A stretch of 64,000 nucleotides of DNA, from sequence record OP292222.1. One strand, 5' to 3'. The notes beneath the pieces were generated by a model, which did no database searches, was not told the origin of the DNA, and was given only the letters and a program-made list of their open reading frames with translations. Shown here in pieces: positions 15,562 to 57,736 of this stretch; the stretch's first letter is position 1; the number at the start of each line of letters is the position of its first letter. Position numbers and translations under genes: made by a program. Source of the stretch: Escherichia phage Esco_phi_B-01.

Positions 15562-15617
15562 ATTGCTTTAAAATATTGATTTATAATACATTTACCAACT
15601 AAATGAGAGAAAATATT

Positions 15618-18351: not shown

Positions 18352-18714
18352 ATGATTGAAATTACTCTGAAACAACCTGAAGACTTCTTGAAAGTGAAAG
18401 AGACCCTAACTCGTATGGGTATCGCTAATAATAAAGAAAAGAAACTATATCAATCCTGTCACATTTTGCAAAAGCAAGGACGGTATTATATTGTCCACTT
18501 TAAAGAGATGTTGCGTATGGATGGCCGCCAGGTAGATATCGATGGTGAAGACTACCAACGCCGTGATTCCATAGCCCAGCTTCTTAAGGATTGGGGACTT
18601 ATTGATATTGTAGACGATTCTGAATTGTTCGAAATTACTAATAATTTCCGTGTCATTTCATTTAAACAGAAAAATGACTGGGAACTGCTGTCTAAGTATA
18701 CGATTGGTAATTAA
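18352..18714 (+). CDS. regA: translational repressor RegA
   Basis: similarity recalled to T4 RegA; position directly upstream of gene 43. Confidence 0.88.
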   Translation: MIEITLKQPEDFLKVKETLTRMGIANNKEKKLYQSCHILQKQGRYYIVHFKEMLRMDGRQVDIDGEDYQRRDSIAQLLKDWGLIDIVDDSELFEITNNFRVISFKQKNDWELLSKYTIGN

Positions 18715-18722
18715 GTTTAAGC

Positions 18723-18743
18723 AAAGGGACTTTGGTCCCTTTT
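18723..18743 (+). terminator. hairpin + T-run (aagggac-tttg-gtccctt-ttt) after regA; may double as leader structure of gene 43
   Basis: stem-loop with T5. Confidence 0.6.
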
Positions 18744-18802
18744 TGGAGTATAATTATTCATCAACAAACAAAAGACAATCACTCGTCTATAAAGGAAATG
18801 AA

Positions 18803-21514
18803 ATGCAAGAATTCTATTTGACAGTCGAACAAATCGGTGATAATATTCTCGAACGTTACATCGATAAAAATGGTAACGAACGTAGTCGTGAAGTTCCTTA
18901 CAAGCCTACAATGTTTATGCATGCCAACCCAGAGCAAGCCGTAAAATATATTGACATCTACGGTAAGGGCTGTGTTAAGAAAGAATTCGATTCAATGCGC
19001 GATGCTTCTCAGTGGATGAAGCGAATGGACGATATGGGTCTCGAAGCCCTTGGTATGGACGACTACAAATTAGCCTATTTGTCTGATACCTATCGTAAAG
19101 AAATCAAGTATGATTCTTCCAAGATTCGTATTGCTAACTTCGACATCGAGGTAACATCTCCTGATGGATTCCCTGAACCTGCCCAGGCTAAACATCCTAT
19201 CGATGCCATTACTCACTACGACTCGATTGACGATAAATTCTATGTATTCGACCTTTTAGTTTCACCTTATGGTACGGTCGAAGAGTGGTCGATTAAAATC
19301 GCTGAGAAACTCCAAGACGAAGGTGGTGACGAAGTTCCACAAGAAATCATTGACAAAATCGTTTATCTTCCGTTTAATTCTGAAGAAGAAATGATGCTTG
19401 AGTATCTGAATTTCTGGCAACAGAAAACTCCTGTGATTTTGACTGGATGGAACGTTGAATCATTTGACGTGCCATACGTTTATAACCGTCTGAAAAATCT
19501 GTTTGGTGAGAACACTGCTAAGCGATTAAGCCCGCATCGTAAGACTCGTGTTAAAGTTATCGAGAATATGTACGGTGTTCGTGAAATTATTACACTGTTC
19601 GGTATTTCTGTTCTGGATTATATCGACCTTTATAAAAAATTCAGCTTTACTAACCAGCCTTCTTATTCTCTGGATTATGTTTCTGAATATGAATTGAAAG
19701 TAGGTAAGTTGAAATATGATGGTCCTATCTCCAAGTTACGTGAGACAAACCACCAACGATATATTTCCTATAACATTATCGACGTATATCGTGTTGTGCA
19801 GATTGATATGAAACGCCAGTTCATTCTTCTTAGTCTGGACATGGGTTATTATGCTAAGATGCAGATTCAGTCAGTGTTCAGTCCAATTAAGACTTGGGAC
19901 GCTATTATCTTTAATAGCCTTAAAGAACAGGGTAAAGTTATTCCTCAGGCCAAATCGCATGCGGTTCAACCTTATCCAGGTGCTTTCGTTAAGGAACCTA
20001 TTCCTAACGCGTACAAATATGTAATGAGTTTCGACCTTACATCTCTGTACCCAAGTATCATTCGACAAGTGAATATAAGCCCAGAGACCATCGCAGGCAC
20101 ATTCGCCAACGCACCGATACATGAATATATTGCCGGAACTGCTCCGCGTCCTAGCGACACCTACAGTTGCTCTCCTAACGGCATGATGTACTATAAAGAC
20201 CGTGATGGTGTGATTCCTACAGAAATCACGAAGGTGTTCTTACAACGTAAAGAACATAAAGGTTATATGCTCGCAGCTCAACGTAATGGTGAGTTAATTA
20301 AAGAAGCATTAGAAAATCCTAATCCATCTGTTGATAGTCCACTGGATATCGATTATCGTTTCGACTTCTCTGACGAAATCAAAGCCCAGATTAAAAAATT
20401 GTCAGCATCTTCTTTAAAAGAAATGTTGTTCAAAGCCGAACGTACTGAAGTCGCAGGTATGACTGCTCAGATTAACCGTAAGTTGCTTATCAACTCCCTT
20501 TATGGTGCACTTGGTAACGTATGGTTCCGTTACTATGACCTCAGGAACGCAACTGCAATCACATTGTTTGGTCAAATGGCCCTCCAATGGATTGAACGTA
20601 AGGTTAACGAATATCTGAATAGCGTATGTAAGACCGAAAACCAGAAGTTCGTGCTCTATGGTGATACCGACTCCATTTATGTTAAGGCCGATGCAATCAT
20701 CAATAAAGTAGGCGAAGATAAATTCCGTGATACTAACCACTGGGTTGACTTCTTAGATAAATTTGCACGTGAACGTATGGAACCAGCTATTGATGCAGGC
20801 TTCCGTGAGATGTGTGAATACATGAACAATAAACAGCACTTGATGTTCATGGACCGAGAAGCTATCGCAGGTCCTCCACTTGGTTCTAAAGGTCTTGGTG
20901 GATTCTGGACAGGCAAGAAACGTTATGCACTGAACGTTTGGGACATGGAAGGTACTCGTTATGCCGAACCACACTTGAAAATCATGGGTCTCGAAACTCA
21001 GAAATCAAGTACACCTAAAGCGGTTCAGAAAGCACTGAAAGAATGTATCCGTCGTATGCTTCAAGAAGGCGAGGCCTCTTTGCAAGAGTATTTCAAACAG
21101 TTTAATAAGGAATTTAACGAATTAGACTATGTAAGCATTGCTGCAGTATCCAGTGCTAACAACATCGAGAAATATAATGAAGGTGGTTTCCCTGGTTCTA
21201 AATGCCCGTATCACATCAAAGGTTGCTTAGCTTACATGCGTGCTTCTGCTGGTGATTTGACTATGCCTCGTATCGTTGATGGTGAAAAGGTATATGTACT
21301 GCCACTTAAAGAAGGCAACCCGTTCGGTGAAGCTTGTATGGCATGGCCGTCAGGTATTGAACTTCCGATTCAGATTCGTGACCAAGTCCTCCGTTGGATG
21401 GACTACAACGTACTGTTCCAAAAGACCTTTATCAAACCCCTGACCGGTTTTACTGAGTCTGCTAAAATCGACTACGAGAAAAAAGCAACATTATTTGACA
21501 TGTTTGACTTTTAA
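18803..21514 (+). CDS. 43: DNA polymerase gp43 (family B, with 3'-5' exonuclease)
   Basis: Exo I FDIEV, motif A DLTSLYPSII, motif C YGDTDS; N-terminus MQEFYLTVEQIGDNI matches T4/RB69-type gp43; start taken at ATG after SD aagga (track ORF starts upstream). Confidence 0.97.
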   Translation: MQEFYLTVEQIGDNILERYIDKNGNERSREVPYKPTMFMHANPEQAVKYIDIYGKGCVKKEFDSMRDASQWMKRMDDMGLEALGMDDYKLAYLSDTYRKEIKYDSSKIRIANFDIEVTSPDGFPEPAQAKHPIDAITHYDSIDDKFYVFDLLVSPYGTVEEWSIKIAEKLQDEGGDEVPQEIIDKIVYLPFNSEEEMMLEYLNFWQQKTPVILTGWNVESFDVPYVYNRLKNLFGENTAKRLSPHRKTRVKVIENMYGVREIITLFGISVLDYIDLYKKFSFTNQPSYSLDYVSEYELKVGKLKYDGPISKLRETNHQRYISYNIIDVYRVVQIDMKRQFILLSLDMGYYAKMQIQSVFSPIKTWDAIIFNSLKEQGKVIPQAKSHAVQPYPGAFVKEPIPNAYKYVMSFDLTSLYPSIIRQVNISPETIAGTFANAPIHEYIAGTAPRPSDTYSCSPNGMMYYKDRDGVIPTEITKVFLQRKEHKGYMLAAQRNGELIKEALENPNPSVDSPLDIDYRFDFSDEIKAQIKKLSASSLKEMLFKAERTEVAGMTAQINRKLLINSLYGALGNVWFRYYDLRNATAITLFGQMALQWIERKVNEYLNSVCKTENQKFVLYGDTDSIYVKADAIINKVGEDKFRDTNHWVDFLDKFARERMEPAIDAGFREMCEYMNNKQHLMFMDREAIAGPPLGSKGLGGFWTGKKRYALNVWDMEGTRYAEPHLKIMGLETQKSSTPKAVQKALKECIRRMLQEGEASLQEYFKQFNKEFNELDYVSIAAVSSANNIEKYNEGGFPGSKCPYHIKGCLAYMRASAGDLTMPRIVDGEKVYVLPLKEGNPFGEACMAWPSGIELPIQIRDQVLRWMDYNVLFQKTFIKPLTGFTESAKIDYEKKATLFDMFDF

Positions 21515-22515: not shown

Positions 22516-24189
22516 ATGAAAAAGGTTGTTATTTTAGGCGCAGGTCTTGGCTCACGGTTGTATCCAATTACTAACGAAATCCCGAAGGTATTGGTTAACT
22601 ATAAACAACATACGGTATTAAAGCATTTGTATGATTTGTATAGTAACCAATCAGATGAAATTATTCTGGTTATTCACAGCAAATTTAACGACCTCGTTAA
22701 AGGCTATATTAAATCCATTAACATGATTACTGGTGATAAGCCTAAATTCACTATTCGTAACGTTGATGTTGCTAATGGTTCAGCTCATGCAATCGATTGC
22801 ATTGCCGAAGATATCATTGGCCATAATGTCCTGTTTAACTGGTGTGACATCATTCCTATCGGTCATAAAGTTGAATGGGGTAACGACTACTGTTATACCT
22901 ATGGAACTGACTGTCGTTTTACATTTGAAGAACCGTACTTACGTGAAATTGGTACTGGTGGCGGTGTAGTTGGTTTGTATCAGGTAGCCAATTGGACAGG
23001 TTTCGACCGTTCTAATTATGGTGAAGACCTTGCTGATAACCTGGATTCAATGGTCTATTTGACCGAACGTAAACTGGATTTTGTAGTTGATGTCGGTGAC
23101 AAATTGAAACTGGCTAAGGCCCATGAAGAATCTGAAATTAACCGTGAATTTAATAAATTAGAATTCACCGAGAATCTGGCTATTAAAGTACCAACTAACG
23201 AATTAGGTAAAGAAATTCAATCTAAAGAAATCAATTGGTATAATTCTATTGATTCTGAATTCGTTCCTAGCATTGTAGACTTTTCTCCAGGCGAATTCAT
23301 TAAAATGGAACGTATCTTTGGTCGAACCATGGCAGATGCCTACCGGTTTATGTCCAAAGAAACTAAAGTCCTCATGGTTTATAAGGTCATTAGTGCATTA
23401 CGTTCATTTGGTGGAACTATTGATAACCCGTCCGATGAGCAATGGTATTCCGATGTTAAGAAAGAAGTATTGGACAAGGTCCTTATTCGTAATGCTTCTA
23501 TTGCTGGATTGATTGAAGGCTTTGCTCCACAGGGCATTACCCATGTTAACGATTTCAAAGTAGGCGACCCTGAAAAACTTCTTCGCCATGCACTAGAAAT
23601 TCTGTCTGAACATAAAGAACCGTACCAACTTATTCATGGCGACCCGCACTACAGTAATATTATGCTGTCGGACGAAGGTGATATTAAAATCATCGACCCA
23701 CGTGGTTATTTCGGTAATAGTTCTAAAGGCCCTGCGATTTATGATGAAGCTAAGGTGCTTTATTCTATCGATGGCTATGACAAATTTAACTCAGACCCTC
23801 TATGGGGCGGATTAACTCGTAACGGAACTCGTGTATTCGTTGATATCGAAAAGATTATGCCTTTAGACGATATCCCTATGTGCACATTTAAGCACAAGCT
23901 CTGGATTGCTGTTATTTGGATGGCTCTGGCAGGTTACTTTAAGAATAACCCTCTGAAAGCTCTAGGTGCTTATTATAACGGTTTGTACCAACTGAGTGTG
24001 CTGCTGAAGCGGCATCCTCGTAAGCGTAAGCTTATTACGGGTGAATTTGTCGATGAAGTTCGTGACCCTATTACGGCTCAAATTATTACTCGTTGTCCTG
24101 ATAAGTGGGTTTTGCTTGACCAGGAAACTGGTGTAAAATATAAACCTACAGGTTCTACTGAACTCCACAAACAATGGAAGAAAATTTAA
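22516..24189 (+). CDS. bifunctional nucleotidyltransferase / protein-kinase-like phosphotransferase
   Basis: N-terminus ILGAGLGSRLYPIT...PKVLV (sugar-phosphate nucleotidyltransferase G-x-G-x-R signature); C-terminus HGDPHYSNIML ... IKIIDPRGYFG (Brenner HxDxxxxN + downstream D, APH/choline-kinase-like); start at ATG after SD gaggaa. Confidence 0.75.
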   Translation: MKKVVILGAGLGSRLYPITNEIPKVLVNYKQHTVLKHLYDLYSNQSDEIILVIHSKFNDLVKGYIKSINMITGDKPKFTIRNVDVANGSAHAIDCIAEDIIGHNVLFNWCDIIPIGHKVEWGNDYCYTYGTDCRFTFEEPYLREIGTGGGVVGLYQVANWTGFDRSNYGEDLADNLDSMVYLTERKLDFVVDVGDKLKLAKAHEESEINREFNKLEFTENLAIKVPTNELGKEIQSKEINWYNSIDSEFVPSIVDFSPGEFIKMERIFGRTMADAYRFMSKETKVLMVYKVISALRSFGGTIDNPSDEQWYSDVKKEVLDKVLIRNASIAGLIEGFAPQGITHVNDFKVGDPEKLLRHALEILSEHKEPYQLIHGDPHYSNIMLSDEGDIKIIDPRGYFGNSSKGPAIYDEAKVLYSIDGYDKFNSDPLWGGLTRNGTRVFVDIEKIMPLDDIPMCTFKHKLWIAVIWMALAGYFKNNPLKALGAYYNGLYQLSVLLKRHPRKRKLITGEFVDEVRDPITAQIITRCPDKWVLLDQETGVKYKPTGSTELHKQWKKI

Positions 24190-25800: not shown

Positions 25801-26690
25801 GTTTGTTTATCGTTCCTATTTTCAGTATGCGTAGTTACGAAACAGGTGAATATGCCGTCCTTAAGGACGGCAATTTTCAACTCCATTTAAATCGTGCTCG
25901 TCCAGGTGATTATCTGGCTTATCCTAGAAATTCGAGCGATATCAAAGAATGCATTGAATTATTCCCGGAACTGAATTTCGTACCACTTTGGTATAAAGAA
26001 AATGCTTATGAAACCCGTAAACATTTCTGGTCTGAAAATGAGTTTGTAGTCGATTCACTAATCGAATACTACGATTGCTCAGGACTGGTAACTGATATCA
26101 CCGGTTATGATGGTGCTCACACTGTACAATTCAACTTTAATATCACAATGGACCCTGAAGTTCCTCGTTATTATATCGACGAGTTCATTGATATTGATGT
26201 GGCTTCAGTTGAACGTTCACTTTATACTACAGTCCTGAATCAATGCCAGAAAGACGTCCTGGTGTCACGAGGTGCATCCTCTGATAAGATTTTTGTAGAC
26301 CAAAAGGTAATTAATCCTGCAGTAATTGAGCGTTACTCTGAAGGTCTAGCGCCTATTAAAATTGATGGTATTTTCCATCCATTCCGTATTTCGGATAAGT
26401 GCTATCAATTCGAAAGAGTTGTAGACCAAGCTGCCGCTGAAGGTGCTCGTCTTTATATCACTGACCCGAATGATTCATTTAAGCGTGAAGACTATCGTCC
26501 TGATGTAGAGATTATTAAATTCAAACCGAGTAAGGTTGAATATTATCAAATTCTGAAATCAAGACCACATATCATTTATCATGAGAACCCAGGTTTAGTA
26601 TTCCATCCTGGTCTGGCTGAATTCATTTATTTCGGTGCCAATATTCATTCTGAATACGAAATGCCACGTTATGAGGACGTAGTATGCTAG
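25797..26690 (+). CDS. hypothetical protein (297 aa) occupying the beta-glucosyltransferase slot between 42 and uvsX
   Basis: ORF; no recognisable motif; position only. Confidence 0.55.
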   Translation: MSLFIVPIFSMRSYETGEYAVLKDGNFQLHLNRARPGDYLAYPRNSSDIKECIELFPELNFVPLWYKENAYETRKHFWSENEFVVDSLIEYYDCSGLVTDITGYDGAHTVQFNFNITMDPEVPRYYIDEFIDIDVASVERSLYTTVLNQCQKDVLVSRGASSDKIFVDQKVINPAVIERYSEGLAPIKIDGIFHPFRISDKCYQFERVVDQAAAEGARLYITDPNDSFKREDYRPDVEIIKFKPSKVEYYQILKSRPHIIYHENPGLVFHPGLAEFIYFGANIHSEYEMPRYEDVVC

Positions 26691-26816
26691 GTCCTCTATT
26701 GCTTTTTATAGGTTTGTTATTATTCTCTTTCGGAGCCTTGCTATTACTAGTGTGGCTCGAGAAACGAGAAGTTCGGAAGATAGTCGATAAGGCTATCAAC
26801 CGAGGAATTAAGTAAT
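26685..26816 (+). CDS. small membrane peptide (43 aa)
   Basis: hydrophobic ORF overlapping upstream stop. Confidence 0.35.
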
Positions 26817-26840
26817 GCTGTAGCTGTGAAGTGATATAAT
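26814..26840 (+). promoter_or_regulatory. candidate MotA-dependent middle promoter (aaTGCTgtA box about 12 bp upstream of TATAAT)
   Basis: MotA-box-like motif positioned near -30 relative to -10. Confidence 0.35.
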
Positions 26841-26892
26841 TACCCTATCTTAAAACGTGAGAAAAATATAATGATGCCTATGGAAAAATATA

Positions 26893-28065
26893 ATGTCTGA
26901 TTTAAAATCCCGTTTGATTAAAGCTTCTACTTCTAAAATGACTGCCGACCTGACCAAATCTAAATTGTTTAATGGTCGTGACGAAGTTCCTACTCGTATT
27001 CCTATGCTTAATATTGCATTGGGTGGTGCGTTGAATGCAGGCTTACAATCAGGTTTGACAATCTTTGCTGCACCGTCTAAACACTTTAAAACGTTGTTTG
27101 GATTAACTATGGTTGCGGCATATATGAAGAAATATCCAGACGCAATTTGCTTGTTCTATGACTCTGAATTCGGTGCTTCAGAATCTTATTTCCGTTCAAT
27201 GGGTGTTGACCTGGAACGTGTGGTTCATACGCCAATCCAGTCAGTCGAACAACTGAAGGTTGACATGACCAACCAATTAGAAGAAATTACTCGTGGCGAA
27301 AAGGTTATTATCTTTATCGACTCCATCGGTAACACTGCTTCTAAGAAAGAAACCGAAGATGCTTTGAACGAGAAAGTTGTAGGTGATATGACTCGTGCTA
27401 AGTCTCTGAAATCTCTGTTCCGTATCGTAACACCTTATCTGACTATCAAGGATATTCCTTGCGTAGCAATTAACCATACGGCTATGGAAATTGGTGGAAT
27501 GTATCCTAAAGAGATTATGGGTGGCGGTACTGGTATTCTGTACTCTGCTTCTACCGTATTCTTTATCTCTAAACGTCAGGTTAAAGATGGTACCGAGCTC
27601 ACTGGTTATGACTTCACCCTGAAGGCCGAAAAATCTCGTACTGTTAAAGAGAAATCAACGTTCCCAATTACTGTGAACTTTGAAGGTGGTATCGACCCAT
27701 TTAGTGGTCTGCTCGAAATGGCTACTGATATTGGCTTTGTTGTGAAACCTAAAGCTGGTTGGTATAATCGTGCATTCCTTGACGAAACCACGGGTGAAAT
27801 GGTTCAAGAAGAAAAATCATGGCGTGCTAAAGCTACCGATTGTGTCGAGTTCTGGGGACCGCTGTTTAAACATGCTCCATTCCGTGAAGCAATCGAGAAT
27901 AAGTATAAGCTCGGTGCAATTAATTCTATTAAAGAAGTCGATGATGCGGTGAACGACCTTATTAACTCTCGTGTCTCTAAGAACGTTGCAGTTAAATTGA
28001 GTGGCGACACTCAAAGCGCAGCTGATATCGAAAACGATTTAGAAGAGATGGATTTAGATGACTGA
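26893..28065 (+). CDS. uvsX: recombinase UvsX (RecA-like)
   Basis: near-identity recalled to T4 UvsX N-terminus (MSDLKSRLIKASTSK...) and throughout. Confidence 0.95.
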   Translation: MSDLKSRLIKASTSKMTADLTKSKLFNGRDEVPTRIPMLNIALGGALNAGLQSGLTIFAAPSKHFKTLFGLTMVAAYMKKYPDAICLFYDSEFGASESYFRSMGVDLERVVHTPIQSVEQLKVDMTNQLEEITRGEKVIIFIDSIGNTASKKETEDALNEKVVGDMTRAKSLKSLFRIVTPYLTIKDIPCVAINHTAMEIGGMYPKEIMGGGTGILYSASTVFFISKRQVKDGTELTGYDFTLKAEKSRTVKEKSTFPITVNFEGGIDPFSGLLEMATDIGFVVKPKAGWYNRAFLDETTGEMVQEEKSWRAKATDCVEFWGPLFKHAPFREAIENKYKLGAINSIKEVDDAVNDLINSRVSKNVAVKLSGDTQSAADIENDLEEMDLDD

Positions 28066-29895: not shown

Positions 29896-30213
29896 ATGAA
29901 AACCATCGACTGTAAAGCGGAATATAAAGTGTATTACCATGGAAGTTGTAGTGTTGCTAATATTGGTAATATGCTTTGTCCTCCTGAGGAAACAGGAGTT
30001 CTGTCTGAAACTGGTCGTAAGAAAAACCTGAACCGTGTGTTCTTTACTGAAGATATTGGTTTGGCTAAGATTTATGCTGGCCGAGCTGCTCGTTCGGTGG
30101 GAGGAGAACCTCGTCTTTATCGTGTAATTGCTCCGGTAGATGTGGTTTGTTTAAATGATACCAAAGGCGCTACGGTTTATCACGCTGAATGGGCCTTCTG
30201 TGAGGAAATCTAA
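29896..30213 (+). CDS. hypothetical protein (105 aa)
   Basis: ORF after PeSL; start at second ATG with SD atggag. Confidence 0.5.
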   Translation: MKTIDCKAEYKVYYHGSCSVANIGNMLCPPEETGVLSETGRKKNLNRVFFTEDIGLAKIYAGRAARSVGGEPRLYRVIAPVDVVCLNDTKGATVYHAEWAFCEEI

Positions 30214-30417
30214 ATGTTTAAATTAGAAATCGTAGTGTTTATTGGTTGGTTTGAAAATGGTAATATGTTTACCAAAGAAACTGCGCTGGATGTTAGTGAC
30301 CAAAAAATGATTGAATGGGTTACAGTGCAGTATGCAGAAGTGAATAATGCACTGGTGAAAGCCTTTGTTAATGACAATAAAGTTTTTGAATATGATGCCC
30401 GCATTGAGGAAATCTAA
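30214..30417 (+). CDS. hypothetical protein (67 aa)
   Basis: ORF. Confidence 0.45.
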   Translation: MFKLEIVVFIGWFENGNMFTKETALDVSDQKMIEWVTVQYAEVNNALVKAFVNDNKVFEYDARIEEI

Positions 30418-30558
30418 ATGGAAGAGGTTGAATGTGTAGTATGTGGTTGTTCGGTATGTGAAGACCAGGCGGTATTTGATGCTTGGGACAACGCAACTTG
30501 TTTAGACTGCGATAGCGAATACGAAGAAATTGCTCATAAACATGAAGACGAGGAATAA
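30418..30558 (+). CDS. Cys-rich small protein (46 aa; CVVCGCSVC ... CLDC)
   Basis: ORF below track threshold; zinc-ribbon-like cysteines. Confidence 0.35.
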   Translation: MEEVECVVCGCSVCEDQAVFDAWDNATCLDCDSEYEEIAHKHEDEE

Positions 30559-33219: not shown

Positions 33220-33313
33220 GTTATCCTCCTGTTAAATTAATATTTATTCGCTTTAATCTAGCAGTTTATAATTATCTAACTTACTAACAAATGAATTGAT
33301 AAGGAAAAATATA

Positions 33314-33835
33314 ATGGCTCATTTTAATGAATGTTCTCAACTGATTGCCGGTGCCGATAAAGCTGAAGAAGCTTATTTTAATGCTCTGATTCACGAAGAT
33401 AAAGACCCTCTGCAGGTTATGCTTGATATGCAGAAATCTTTGCAGGTTCGTTTAGCTAAAGATAAGCCTGAATATAATCGTCATCCTGATGATTTGGCCA
33501 CTGCGGGTGAAGTTGTCGATTGGCTTCGCAACCAGAAAGATTATATTGATGACGAATTCCGTGAACTTCTGACTTCTCTTGGTGGTATGAGCAATGGTGA
33601 AAAAGATGCATCTGCAGTATGGAAGCCTTGGAAAGCTCAACATGCTGAACGTCGTGAAACCCTGATTAACGATTTGTCTCCTGAAGACCAGCTCGAAATT
33701 AAATTCGAAATGATTGATATTCTGCACTTTGTTCTGAATATGTTCCAGGGTCTTGGACTGACTGCTGAAGAAATCTTTAAACTGTATTATCTTAAAAATG
33801 CCGAGAACTTTGCTCGTCAAGACCGAGGTTATTAA
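33314..33835 (+). CDS. 56: dCTP/dUTP pyrophosphatase gp56 (MazG-like)
   Basis: strong similarity recalled to T4 gp56 (MAHFNEC..., DPLQVMLDMQ, CIDDEFRELLTSLG, EEIFKLYYLKN). Confidence 0.9.
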   Translation: MAHFNECSQLIAGADKAEEAYFNALIHEDKDPLQVMLDMQKSLQVRLAKDKPEYNRHPDDLATAGEVVDWLRNQKDYIDDEFRELLTSLGGMSNGEKDASAVWKPWKAQHAERRETLINDLSPEDQLEIKFEMIDILHFVLNMFQGLGLTAEEIFKLYYLKNAENFARQDRGY

Positions 33836-37410: not shown

Positions 37411-37450
37411 AGACCTATCAACTAATCGTCCGTAAGATGAGAAAAATATC

Positions 37451-38200
37451 ATGCCTACTATTAAAACTAGCGATGAATTTGAGTTAAAGGTTTACAACCG
37501 CCGCAAACACACCAAAGCTTCTGCTTATAAACGTGGTAAGGACTTCAATCTGTCTAGTAAGTATGTTCGTAGACTTCTCGAACAAAAAGTGTGCGCTTAT
37601 TCAGGCGAGTACTTTGATGAAAATTCAGTTAATGATAAGATTTCATTTGAACGTTTTAACAACGATATCGGCTATATTGAGGGTAATGTAATCCCAGTTA
37701 AAGTTAAGTATAACAGCTTACGTGCCGATTTGTCCCTTGATGAACTGAAACGTGCCCAGACTCGTTTAGCAGTTCGTATTTCAGGTAGTTCTAAAATGCC
37801 TAATAGTTTTAAAGTTACCCCTGATAATTATTATAAAATCCGTAAAATCGTTAAAAATATAAAAGATACCCAAAGAGGTCTTAAAAAACGTGAAAAACGT
37901 CTTAAAGACCTTATTAAATCGGGAGCTACTGATAAGACTCCTTCTGTTATCGCGGTTAAGGCCCGTATCCACGGTTCTAACGCTTCAATCGGTACTATGG
38001 AAAAAGGTCTTAAATCTTTAATTGGTGGGCCTGACTGGCGCGTCAAGTTTAAATTGTCTGAAGCAGAAACGCGTTACGATATGTATGATAAAATTATTCA
38101 AGGTCTGGAGCGTTTAGAACACCTTTCTTTTATTGACAAATTGAAGTTGAAAAAAGGTCTTCCGCTGAATGCTTCAATTTTTTCACTGATTAGAGGTTAA
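37451..38200 (+). CDS. hypothetical basic protein (249 aa); Srd-like by position upstream of dda
   Basis: synteny only. Confidence 0.5.
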   Translation: MPTIKTSDEFELKVYNRRKHTKASAYKRGKDFNLSSKYVRRLLEQKVCAYSGEYFDENSVNDKISFERFNNDIGYIEGNVIPVKVKYNSLRADLSLDELKRAQTRLAVRISGSSKMPNSFKVTPDNYYKIRKIVKNIKDTQRGLKKREKRLKDLIKSGATDKTPSVIAVKARIHGSNASIGTMEKGLKSLIGGPDWRVKFKLSEAETRYDMYDKIIQGLERLEHLSFIDKLKLKKGLPLNASIFSLIRG

Positions 38201-55273: not shown

Positions 55274-55906
55274 ATGTCTAAAATTACTTACATCATCAAA
55301 GCTTCTGAAGACGTCCTGAATGAAAAAACGGCTTCTATCTTAGTACATATCATCAAGAACAACTTCATCACTTCAGGCGAAGTCCGTGAAGCCCTGAGTG
55401 AACAATTTAGTGCAGCGGTAGTTAACTCTAACATCGGTGTATTGATTAAGAAAGGATTCATCGAAAAATCTGGTGATGGACTGGTGGCTACAGGTGAAGC
55501 AATGGACCTAGTTCAAAAAGCTGCCGACCTGTTCGCTTCTGAAAATGCTCCAGAGATGTTGGAAAAACGTAAAACTCGCAGTTCACGTGGTGTTACTCCT
55601 GAAATGGTAGTATTGGCTGATGAAGTTAAATCTTTGTTAGAAGACCGTATCGAGATTCGTGAAATCGCTGAAAACCGTAGCAATCTTGAAGTTCGATTCG
55701 CTAAACGTACCAATGGTATTCGTCAAATCGAAGTCCGTCGTGACGGAATGATGCGTATCTTCGGTTATAATATGACCGATAAAGAAAAACAAGTGTTTAC
55801 TTCTTTGAATCTTGATGTTAAGATTAAGACCGGTGGTAAGAATACTTATATCGACTTCCAAAACGTATCATCTGAAGTTATCAAAACCGTAACCAACGCA
55901 ATTTAA
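55274..55906 (+). CDS. motA: middle-transcription activator MotA
   Basis: similarity recalled to T4 MotA (MSKITYIIKAS.DVLNEKTA, NSNIGVLIKKG..EKSGDGL). Confidence 0.9.
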   Translation: MSKITYIIKASEDVLNEKTASILVHIIKNNFITSGEVREALSEQFSAAVVNSNIGVLIKKGFIEKSGDGLVATGEAMDLVQKAADLFASENAPEMLEKRKTRSSRGVTPEMVVLADEVKSLLEDRIEIREIAENRSNLEVRFAKRTNGIRQIEVRRDGMMRIFGYNMTDKEKQVFTSLNLDVKIKTGGKNTYIDFQNVSSEVIKTVTNAI

Positions 55907-57460: not shown

Positions 57461-57736
57461 ATGACTAAAATTGAAATCGTTTCCGAAATTGCTACTATTG
57501 TTTCCATTTTGATTAAAACGGATTGTGAAGACATCATGCAACGCCGTGATGAGTTTATTGCCTTTTTGAATGAGTTAGGTATTCGTAATGAACATGGAAA
57601 GGAACTTAACGGTCTATCTTTTAATAAACTCTTTAAGTCTTTAACTGAAGATGAACGTGATACTCTTATTGAGCAATTTAACGAAGGGTATGAAGATATA
57701 CACCGTTATCTAATGATGTATACCTCCAATTTTTAA
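57461..57736 (+). CDS. asiA: anti-sigma-70 protein AsiA
   Basis: similarity recalled to T4 AsiA (IVSEIATIVSILIK, FIAFLNE.G, LIEQFNEGYE..HRYL.MYT). Confidence 0.9.
   Translation: MTKIEIVSEIATIVSILIKTDCEDIMQRRDEFIAFLNELGIRNEHGKELNGLSFNKLFKSLTEDERDTLIEQFNEGYEDIHRYLMMYTSNF

Follow-up and report, generated by a model that had tools for sequence, protein, structure and literature searches.

A candidate middle promoter and a conserved short upstream open reading frame in the leader of uvsX in the T4-type Escherichia phage Esco_phi_B-01

The recombinase gene uvsX of Escherichia phage Esco_phi_B-01 (sequence record OP292222.1) is preceded by a short leader, in which a candidate middle promoter is followed by an open reading frame (ORF) of nine codons, further called the mini-ORF. 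The window is the whole stretch of 64,000 nucleotides (nt) of this phage that was analysed. In the window, uvsX occupies positions 26893..28065 of the plus strand and encodes a RecA-like recombinase of 390 amino acids with Pfam matches to T4_UVSX_C and RecA. A fragment of 501 bases around the leader is 99.2-99.8% identical to the corresponding DNA of phages of the JS98 group (JS98, JS10, IME281 and MN04), and UvsX of the window shares 99-100% of its residues with UvsX of this group and 67% with that of T4. Judging from these identities, the source phage is a JS98-like Dhakavirus, a T4-type member of Tevenvirinae. In our opinion, the region may be considered as a control cassette of uvsX, consisting of a MotA/AsiA middle promoter and a mini-cistron that would deliver ribosomes to uvsX, and we give this reading an even chance of being correct.

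The promoter is composed of the MotA-box-like element aaTGCTgtA (26814..26822, plus strand; core TGCTGTA, 26816-26822), centred near -30, and the hexamer TATAAT at 26835-26840, with a spacer of 12 nt (26823-26834) between them. A preliminary description of the leader, made from the sequence, had placed a MotA-like box about 12 bp upstream of TATAAT, and all the coordinates that it gave were found to be correct. It had passed over the dinucleotide TG at 26832-26833, which makes the -10 element an extended one, TGaTATAAT (26832..26840, plus strand). Middle promoters of T4 have the consensus MotA box (a/t)(a/t)(a/t)TGCTTtA at a distance of 12 ± 1 bp from the sigma-70 -10 element TAtaaT; the match to the -10 is stringent, single changes in the box are tolerated, and approximately half of these promoters also have TGn (PMC2988021). 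Compared with this consensus, the sequence taaTGCTGTA of the window contains one mismatch in the 7-nt core, its spacing is 12 bp, and its -10 is perfect and carries TGn. The pattern TGCTNNA-N11-13-TATAAT was found three times in 64 kb, with 0.27 matches expected. Both proteins on which this class of promoters depends are encoded in the window, namely the trans-acting activator MotA (motA, 55274..55906, plus strand; Pfam MotA_activ, 4.8e-39, and MotCF, 1.9e-13) and the co-activator AsiA, an anti-sigma factor (asiA, 57461..57736, plus strand; Pfam AsiA, 2.4e-22). An ordinary sigma-70 promoter with -35 and -10 elements was also considered for the uvsX site and was rejected, because the promoter scan did not list one there. 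Two further perfect matches of the MotA type (TGCTTTA-N11/12-TATAAT) were noticed at 15564-15587 on the plus strand and at 37374-37350 on the minus strand, the latter in a region where all long ORFs belong to the plus strand.

The regions upstream of uvsX were compared using GenBank phages and IMG/VR contigs. The promoter was followed in 17 lineages of Tevenvirinae, including Dhakavirus, Mosigvirus-like phages, segA-less Tequatrovirus, Karamvirus, Winklervirus, Jiaodavirus and a contig of Klebsiella phage Marfa. All 17 contain a box with 0-3 mismatches to TGCTTTA, situated 11-12 bp upstream of TATAAT (or TATTAT, TAATAT), and in 16 of them the -10 lies 58-63 nt from the ATG of uvsX. Only in G3F6 is this distance different (104 nt), owing to an insertion. 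The sequence between the box and the -10 varies freely, for example gctgtgaagtga, taacccttagta and acttaattaaag. The retention of the box, the spacing and the -10 along with the divergence of the spacer is a classic phylogenetic footprint and provides the strongest evidence for the promoter. The fit to a MotA-dependent middle promoter suggested in the preliminary description is thus borne out by the consensus, the spacing, the presence of motA and asiA and all 17 lineages, as far as sequence can show it. It is well supported that the promoter would be an ordinary member of the well-known MotA/AsiA class; its dependence on MotA and the start of transcription near A26847 are predictions from these features. 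In Slopekvirus PMBT1 and Pseudotevenvirus EBPL, uvsX directly follows the gene of DNA polymerase, and a GC-rich terminator hairpin is situated about 60 nt upstream of uvsX, immediately before the TGAG...ATG block; no promoter of the MotA type was found there, and in EBPL a late-promoter-like sequence, TATAAATT, stands just upstream of TGAG.

With a start at about A26847, placed 7 nt downstream of the -10, the 5' leader is predicted to comprise 46 nt (26847..26892, plus strand). It includes the greater part of the mini-ORF ATGATGCCTATGGAAAAATATAATGTCTGA (26871..26900, plus strand), which would code for the peptide MMPMEKYNV. The putative initiation region of the mini-ORF, TGAGAAAAATATAATG (26858..26873, plus strand), consists of the Shine-Dalgarno-like (SD-like) tetranucleotide TGAG, an A/T spacer of 9 nt and ATG. 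As had been pointed out earlier, the mini-ORF ends just past the start codon of uvsX (ATG, 26893-26895): its TGA takes positions +6..+8 of uvsX, 5 nt after the A, and is read in a different frame. The SD of uvsX, GGA at 26882-26884, lies 8 nt upstream of the ATG and overlaps the first bases of the second copy of a repeated 13-mer, GAAAAATATAATG.

This 13-mer occurs exactly twice in the leader, once as the spacer and ATG of the mini-ORF (26861..26873, plus strand) and once as the spacer and ATG of uvsX (26883..26895, plus strand). The two copies reported in the preliminary description are real, but they do not form a tandem, as had been stated there; they are separated by 9 nt (22 nt from start to start) and represent a close direct repeat rather than a head-to-tail one. 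With no more than one mismatch, the 13-mer was found five times in the window, with 0.47 occurrences expected. Three of the five are located at the start codons of long ORFs (uvsX, 33314 and 37451), and a fourth is the start of the mini-ORF. Outside the leader, exact or one-mismatch copies were noted at 33304-33316, 37441-37453 and 21167-21179. The copy at 33304-33316 is exact and begins a gene-56-like ORF of 173 amino acids, which starts at 33314; the copy at 21167 opens only a frame of 17 codons inside an ORF of 946 amino acids (18674-21514), presumably the gene of DNA polymerase, since it comes after regA. A recent tandem duplication is not favoured as the origin of the pair, because the two copies differ from each other in MX01, IME08, F2, Marfa-like and other lineages and because the 13-mer also starts another gene. 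The pair should rather be regarded as two adjacent initiation regions of the type usual for this phage.

The leader is devoid of structure. Its minimum free energy is -4.2 kcal/mol, compared with -6.4 ± 2.1 kcal/mol for shuffled sequences (z = +1.05), folding of the 20-lineage alignment described below gave no consensus pairs, and an Rfam scan of the leader returned only sub-threshold noise, with no match near any gathering score. A structured cis-regulatory RNA was rejected on these grounds.

The strength of initiation sites was estimated using a profile built from 52 gene starts of the window, the genes being scored leave-one-out. The ATG of the mini-ORF obtained 11.15 bits. It thereby belongs to the top 1.7% of ATGs that do not start genes, and it outscored 69% of the genes; many of the non-gene ATGs with higher scores are evidently the starts of small genes. 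The generic initiation sequence of the phage may be written as TGAG(G/A)AAAtTAtt-ATG. Three different long ORFs start with ACTGAGGAAATTATTATG, an ORF of 249 amino acids at 37451 starts with TGAGAAAAATATCATG, and a TATTAT-like hexamer is inherent in the preferred sequence TGAGGAAATTATTATG, present at several long genes. These data indicate that the phage has a strongly preferred initiation sequence. A short upstream ORF preceded by an SD and ending within -8..+10 of a start codon was found at only 2 of the 53 gene starts in the window. It appears that the mini-ORF has a credible initiation site of its own, one that is more than a product of chance.

Comparison with other phages leads to a similar opinion. 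The alignment included 20 distinct leader lineages from at least nine named genera, and 22 leader-bearing loci were tabulated. The only columns upstream of the uvsX ATG invariant in all 20 lineages are T26858, G26859, A26860, G26861, A26866, A26868, A26871 and T26872, and G26873 of the mini-ORF ATG is preserved in 19 of them (at least 90%). Judged by these columns, the upstream initiation site is more conserved than that proximal to uvsX. In 21 of the 22 loci, including those of Slopekvirus (PMBT1) and Pseudotevenvirus (EBPL), an ATG is located within -19..-28 and is preceded by GAG(G) at a distance of 8-9 nt. The 60-nt leader was found, over at least 80% of its length, in about 940 phage records. 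In other lineages the mini-ORF is preceded by GAGG or GAGGAG. At 72 more distant T4-like uvsX loci, mostly environmental and having 52-57% protein identity, plain AGGAG or AAGGA sites are used, and a comparable upstream ORF was found in two of them, both times inside the preceding gene. The peptides encoded are different (MMPMEKYNV, MVTNGKI, MVTNGKY, METYGI, METYGK, MRVYKPEK and MFVIFKG); a conserved functional leader peptide was rejected, because sequence, length and frame differ between the lineages. Five lineage types, the window included, have the stop codon close to the start of uvsX, from 6 nt before the A of its ATG to 8 nt past it; both the spacing (22, 23, 24 and 27 nt) and the frame differ among them. 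The contexts of these near stops are ATGTCTGA (the window, TGA at +6), TAATG, TAATGAATG, TAATTAATG and TAAATG.

The position of T4 with respect to this arrangement is special. PuvsX of T4 is a model promoter of the Hinton laboratory. In T4, the homing-endonuclease gene segA, 666 bp in length, is located between beta-gt and uvsX, and the sole match of the MotA type upstream of uvsX, TTTGCTTAATAATCCATATGGTTATAAT, is found within the 3' part of segA. The start predicted from this match corresponds to the mapped start of T4 PuvsX, position 23752 (PMC2988021, Table 1). It was reported in a review that segA and similar insertions displaced existing transcription starts and that promoters of downstream genes became embedded in the endonuclease ORF (PMC2988022). 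When T4 is compared with the segA-less Tequatrovirus phages teqskov and fPS-2, similarity breaks off at ...GTTGATTAATG, at the beginning of the MotA box, and is found again from the ATG of uvsX onwards; therefore, T4 lost the whole cassette of promoter, leader and mini-ORF to the insertion of segA. In the comparison with teqskov, the insertion extends from the exact site of the ancestral MotA box to the start codon of uvsX. The N-terminus of UvsX was also noticed to be different, MSDLKS in T4 and MSIADLKS in segA-less Tequatrovirus, which may reflect co-conversion around the cleavage site of SegA. In place of the lost cassette, uvsX of T4 has a stronger SD, TAAGGT (TAAGGTATTATATG).

The window promoter does not occupy the same site as T4 PuvsX, which lies inside segA, a gene absent from the window. 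It may be regarded as the functional counterpart of PuvsX and not as the same DNA, and the layout of the window is probably the ancestral arrangement upstream of uvsX. In both phages, a MotA box lies about 12 bp from a perfect TATAAT, the promoter drives uvsX, gene 40 and gene 41, and MotA and AsiA are encoded by the phage. The T4 promoter differs in being situated about 220 bp upstream of uvsX in the coding sequence of segA and in having the box TGCTTAA, whereas that of the window is intergenic, lies 58 bp upstream and has the box TGCTGTA. Unlike the leader of the window, that of T4 has the stronger SD mentioned above and no mini-ORF.

From these data, the following course of events is proposed. 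The MotA/AsiA-dependent promoter (TGCTGTA, 12 bp, TGaTATAAT) would start an mRNA at about 26847, and read-through transcripts from upstream genes probably carry the same leader, because there is no terminator in between. The unstructured, A/U-rich leader of 46 nt would offer ribosomes a pair of sites of the kind usual for initiation in this phage, at a distance of 22 nt. At the first of them, TGAG-N9-AUG, a mini-cistron of a few codons with an irrelevant peptide would be opened, and at the second, GGA-N8-AUG, uvsX itself. A ribosome caught at the upstream site would translate nine codons, terminate at the UGA located 5 nt inside uvsX and restart at the adjacent AUG of uvsX. Both sites would then contribute to the synthesis of UvsX and raise its yield, large quantities of this protein being required. 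Translation of the mini-ORF and re-initiation are deduced here from the arrangement of sites, and the near stops in five lineage types with different spacings and frames favour termination followed by re-initiation. Such ribosome delivery, or coupling, is plausible and is the best single explanation that we can offer; taken together with the promoter, it is in our estimation about as probable as its negation.

Translational coupling was already proposed in the preliminary description, and the mini-ORF named there seems to be real and conserved, but the argument is weaker than it was made to appear, and a number of observations weigh against coupling. The statement that uvsX has no good SD holds true for base pairing, as the duplex of uvsX with the anti-SD has an energy of -3.3 kcal/mol, among the weakest approximately 26% of 53 genes (gene median -5.8 kcal/mol). 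It is right only in part, however: GGA is present, the initiation region of uvsX has a score of 11.78 bits, above 73% of genes, no structure masks this ribosome-binding site, and uvsX's own site may suffice. The SD of the mini-ORF (-2.8 kcal/mol) is no stronger than that of uvsX in the window. The upstream ATG is replaced by ATTATTG at the one exceptional locus, L051. The position of the stop codon is variable, from -6 to +80, and only in about half of the lineage types is it within approximately 8 nt of the uvsX ATG; the stop is found at +27..+29 in IME08 and L017, at +33 in segA-less Tequatrovirus, at +45 in PMBT1 and at +78 in L047. In IME08, a single synonymous change of TCT to TCC in uvsX removes the TGA. 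At locus L050 (IMG/VR UViG_2706796082, 1174-1201), no stop codon interrupts the upstream ORF, which continues in frame into uvsX (MFVIFKGTK-MSDLRTR...); either UvsX tolerates an N-terminal extension of nine residues, or few ribosomes start at the upstream ATG there. In L049, closely related to L050, a TAA stands 6 nt ahead of the start codon of uvsX. As a rough estimate, about 20% of such ORFs would end within -6..+8 by chance in A/T-rich sequence, and five near-stop types out of 12 are, on this rough estimate, not significantly above chance. Firm conservation is seen for the upstream initiation site and not for the placement of the stop. Moreover, ribosomes could not occupy the two sites at the same time, and the upstream one could equally reduce initiation at uvsX. 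The conserved block can also be read as a -10-like TATWAT and as an A/U tract resembling a RegA operator.

The latter resemblance leads to an explanation that we consider unlikely, according to which the conserved A/U-rich blocks are operators of a translational repressor, most probably RegA, which would bind the mini-ORF site and, in the lineage of the window, the identical 13-mer at uvsX as well, stopping the synthesis of UvsX. The upstream AUG would then be conserved because RegA sites include AUG, and not for productive translation of the ORF. The gene regA, for a translational repressor that is a candidate trans-factor for A/U-rich initiation regions, is present in the window (18352..18714, plus strand; Pfam Translat_reg, 7.1e-59). 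Sites of RegA are described as unstructured and rich in A+U and as containing AUG along with a 5' poly(A) tract, as exemplified by rIIB AAAAUUAUGUAC, gene 44 AAAUUAUGAUU, a product of selection in vitro (SELEX) aaAAUUGUUAUGUAA and a SELEX product of RB69 RegA AAUAAUAAUAAnA (PMC3014915). The sequence GAAAAAUAUAAUG, present twice in the unstructured leader, agrees with this description, and conservation extends to nearly all bases from the A-tract through the AUG, beyond what an SD with a start codon would need by themselves. The likeness to T4 and RB69 operators (richness in A/U, lack of structure, poly(A) upstream of AUG) is, however, compositional only and weak; the consensus of RegA sites is not a sharp one, and the same description suits many of the phage's initiation sites. 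Besides, the invariant SD-like TGAG is left unexplained, uvsX is not mentioned in the review of RegA (PMC3014915), and no link between RegA and uvsX was found in the accessible literature, to which most papers in subscription journals do not belong. Another explanation, which we find quite improbable, takes the upstream site for a ribosome standby site, enhancer or competitor with no coupling of termination to re-initiation: the 30S subunit or protein S1 would bind the A-rich TGAG region and slide to the uvsX AUG, or ribosomes would be diverted into a futile mini-ORF, lowering UvsX, the position of the stop being irrelevant. This agrees with a conserved start region combined with widely scattered stops and one lineage fused in frame, and also with the unstructured A/U-rich leader and two sites 22 nt apart, too close to be occupied simultaneously. 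An enhancer would not account for the near-invariant upstream ATG, and of the four lineage types that have the ORF in the frame of uvsX, three retain a stop immediately ahead of the uvsX start codon, which also counts against this explanation.

The same bases were also read as DNA. In this very unlikely case, TATAAT at 26867-26872 would be the -10 of a second promoter with the box aTCTTaA 13 bp upstream, giving a uvsX mRNA with a short leader from about 26879, and the ATG of the mini-ORF would be a by-product of TATAAT followed by G. Depositors of a Mosigvirus genome annotated this element (TCTT-N15-TATAAT, its -10 overlapping the ATG of the mini-ORF) as 'similar to T4 middle promoter GCTT(N13-15)TATAAT with 1 bp mismatch', the conserved positions T-A-T-w-A-T in the 20-lineage alignment match the pattern of a -10 hexamer, and in Slopekvirus and Pseudotevenvirus, where the leader comes right after the terminator hairpin, a promoter would be useful. 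Against this, the T and G of TGCTT are missing from the box, whose position is poorly conserved, the invariant TGAG would stand at -21..-18, where no promoter element is known, but its sequence and its distance from the ATG are just those of an SD, and the G of the upstream ATG, kept in 19 of 20 lineages, is not required by a -10. The hexamer itself belongs to the initiation sequence preferred at several long genes. For a second promoter at 26848-26872, the relaxed pattern is no commoner than chance: TCTT-N13-15-TATAAT was found once in the window with 1.49 occurrences expected. In the record of Escherichia phage SA79RD (OL960576.1; locus L127, 403-428), the deposited 'middle promoter' extends over the mini-ORF initiation region, TCTTTTAAACATGAGTAAAATATAAT, and the much better TGCTGTA-N12-TATAAT, 30 bp upstream, is left unannotated.

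Downstream, uvsX is followed by gene 40 and then by the gene 41 helicase, all three on the plus strand. Upstream of uvsX, there are a thymidylate-synthase-like ORF, an ORF of 297 amino acids of unknown function (phrog_3891) and a hydrophobic ORF of 43 amino acids. The latter, MLGPLLLFIGLLLFSFGALLLLVWLEKREVRKIVDKAINRGIK (26684-26815, plus strand), is unannotated; it lies between the 297-amino-acid ORF and the uvsX promoter, and its TAA overlaps the MotA box. No match to it was found in Pfam or PHROG, and the corresponding region carries no annotation in the RefSeq record of JS98. This ORF is kept in IME08 and deleted in the MX01/Bp7 group, and a recognisable, possibly frameshifted counterpart is located upstream of segA in T4. 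Further downstream, an identical 16-mer, TGAGGAAATCTAAATG, occurs twice on the plus strand, at 30201-30216 and 30405-30420, 204 bp apart, and this points to either a pair of small paralogous genes or a local duplication in the DNA that follows gene 41.

Summarizing these data, it may be concluded that the mini-ORF is, on comparative evidence, real and deeply conserved, that the mechanism suggested for it is of a known kind, and that its function is a proposal. No prior description of an ORF upstream of uvsX was found in the accessible literature defined above. MotA-type promoters and translational coupling are textbook mechanisms, and no concept is changed by these results, the value of which is comparative. 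The cassette of promoter, leader and mini-ORF appears to be ancestral, and T4, the reference for work on PuvsX and the expression of UvsX, carries a replacement made by a homing endonuclease. Tentatively, and with some doubt, we suggest that the mini-cistron could be an ancestral, translated device, loading ribosomes or targeted by a repressor, which sets the level of UvsX in most enterobacterial T4-like phages (about 940 genomes, at least nine genera). If so, this device was overlooked as the model phage T4 had lost the mini-cistron to segA, and the expression of uvsX in T4 is atypical for the group. The mini-ORF offers a clean and easily testable natural example of the two-cistron design of initiation. 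For annotators, it follows that a -10-like hexamer inside the start of the mini-ORF should not be called a promoter without evidence.

Among known systems, the leader of uvsX may be compared with coupling by leader peptides in plasmids, such as tap-repA of R1 and repY-repZ of IncB and IncI, where a short upstream ORF also ends at or near the downstream start. In these plasmids, the downstream ribosome-binding site is buried in RNA structure and is under the control of antisense RNA. The uvsX leader differs from them in being unstructured (z = +1.05, no conserved pairs), and therefore coupling of the tap-repA type, by opening a masked ribosome-binding site, is unlikely here. A likeness is also found in engineered two-cistron cassettes. 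That of Schoner et al. (1986) reportedly has a short A/T-rich first cistron, which holds the SD of the second cistron and whose stop codon overlaps the second ATG. The arrangement at uvsX shares several features with such cassettes: the mini-cistron, 6-9 codons long, has an initiation site to itself and contains the SD (GGA) of the following gene, and in the window and four other lineage types its stop overlaps or abuts the downstream ATG (TAATG, TAAATG, ATGTCTGA). Unlike them, it is natural, about half of the lineages do not keep the placement of the stop, and the benefit for expression is only proposed.

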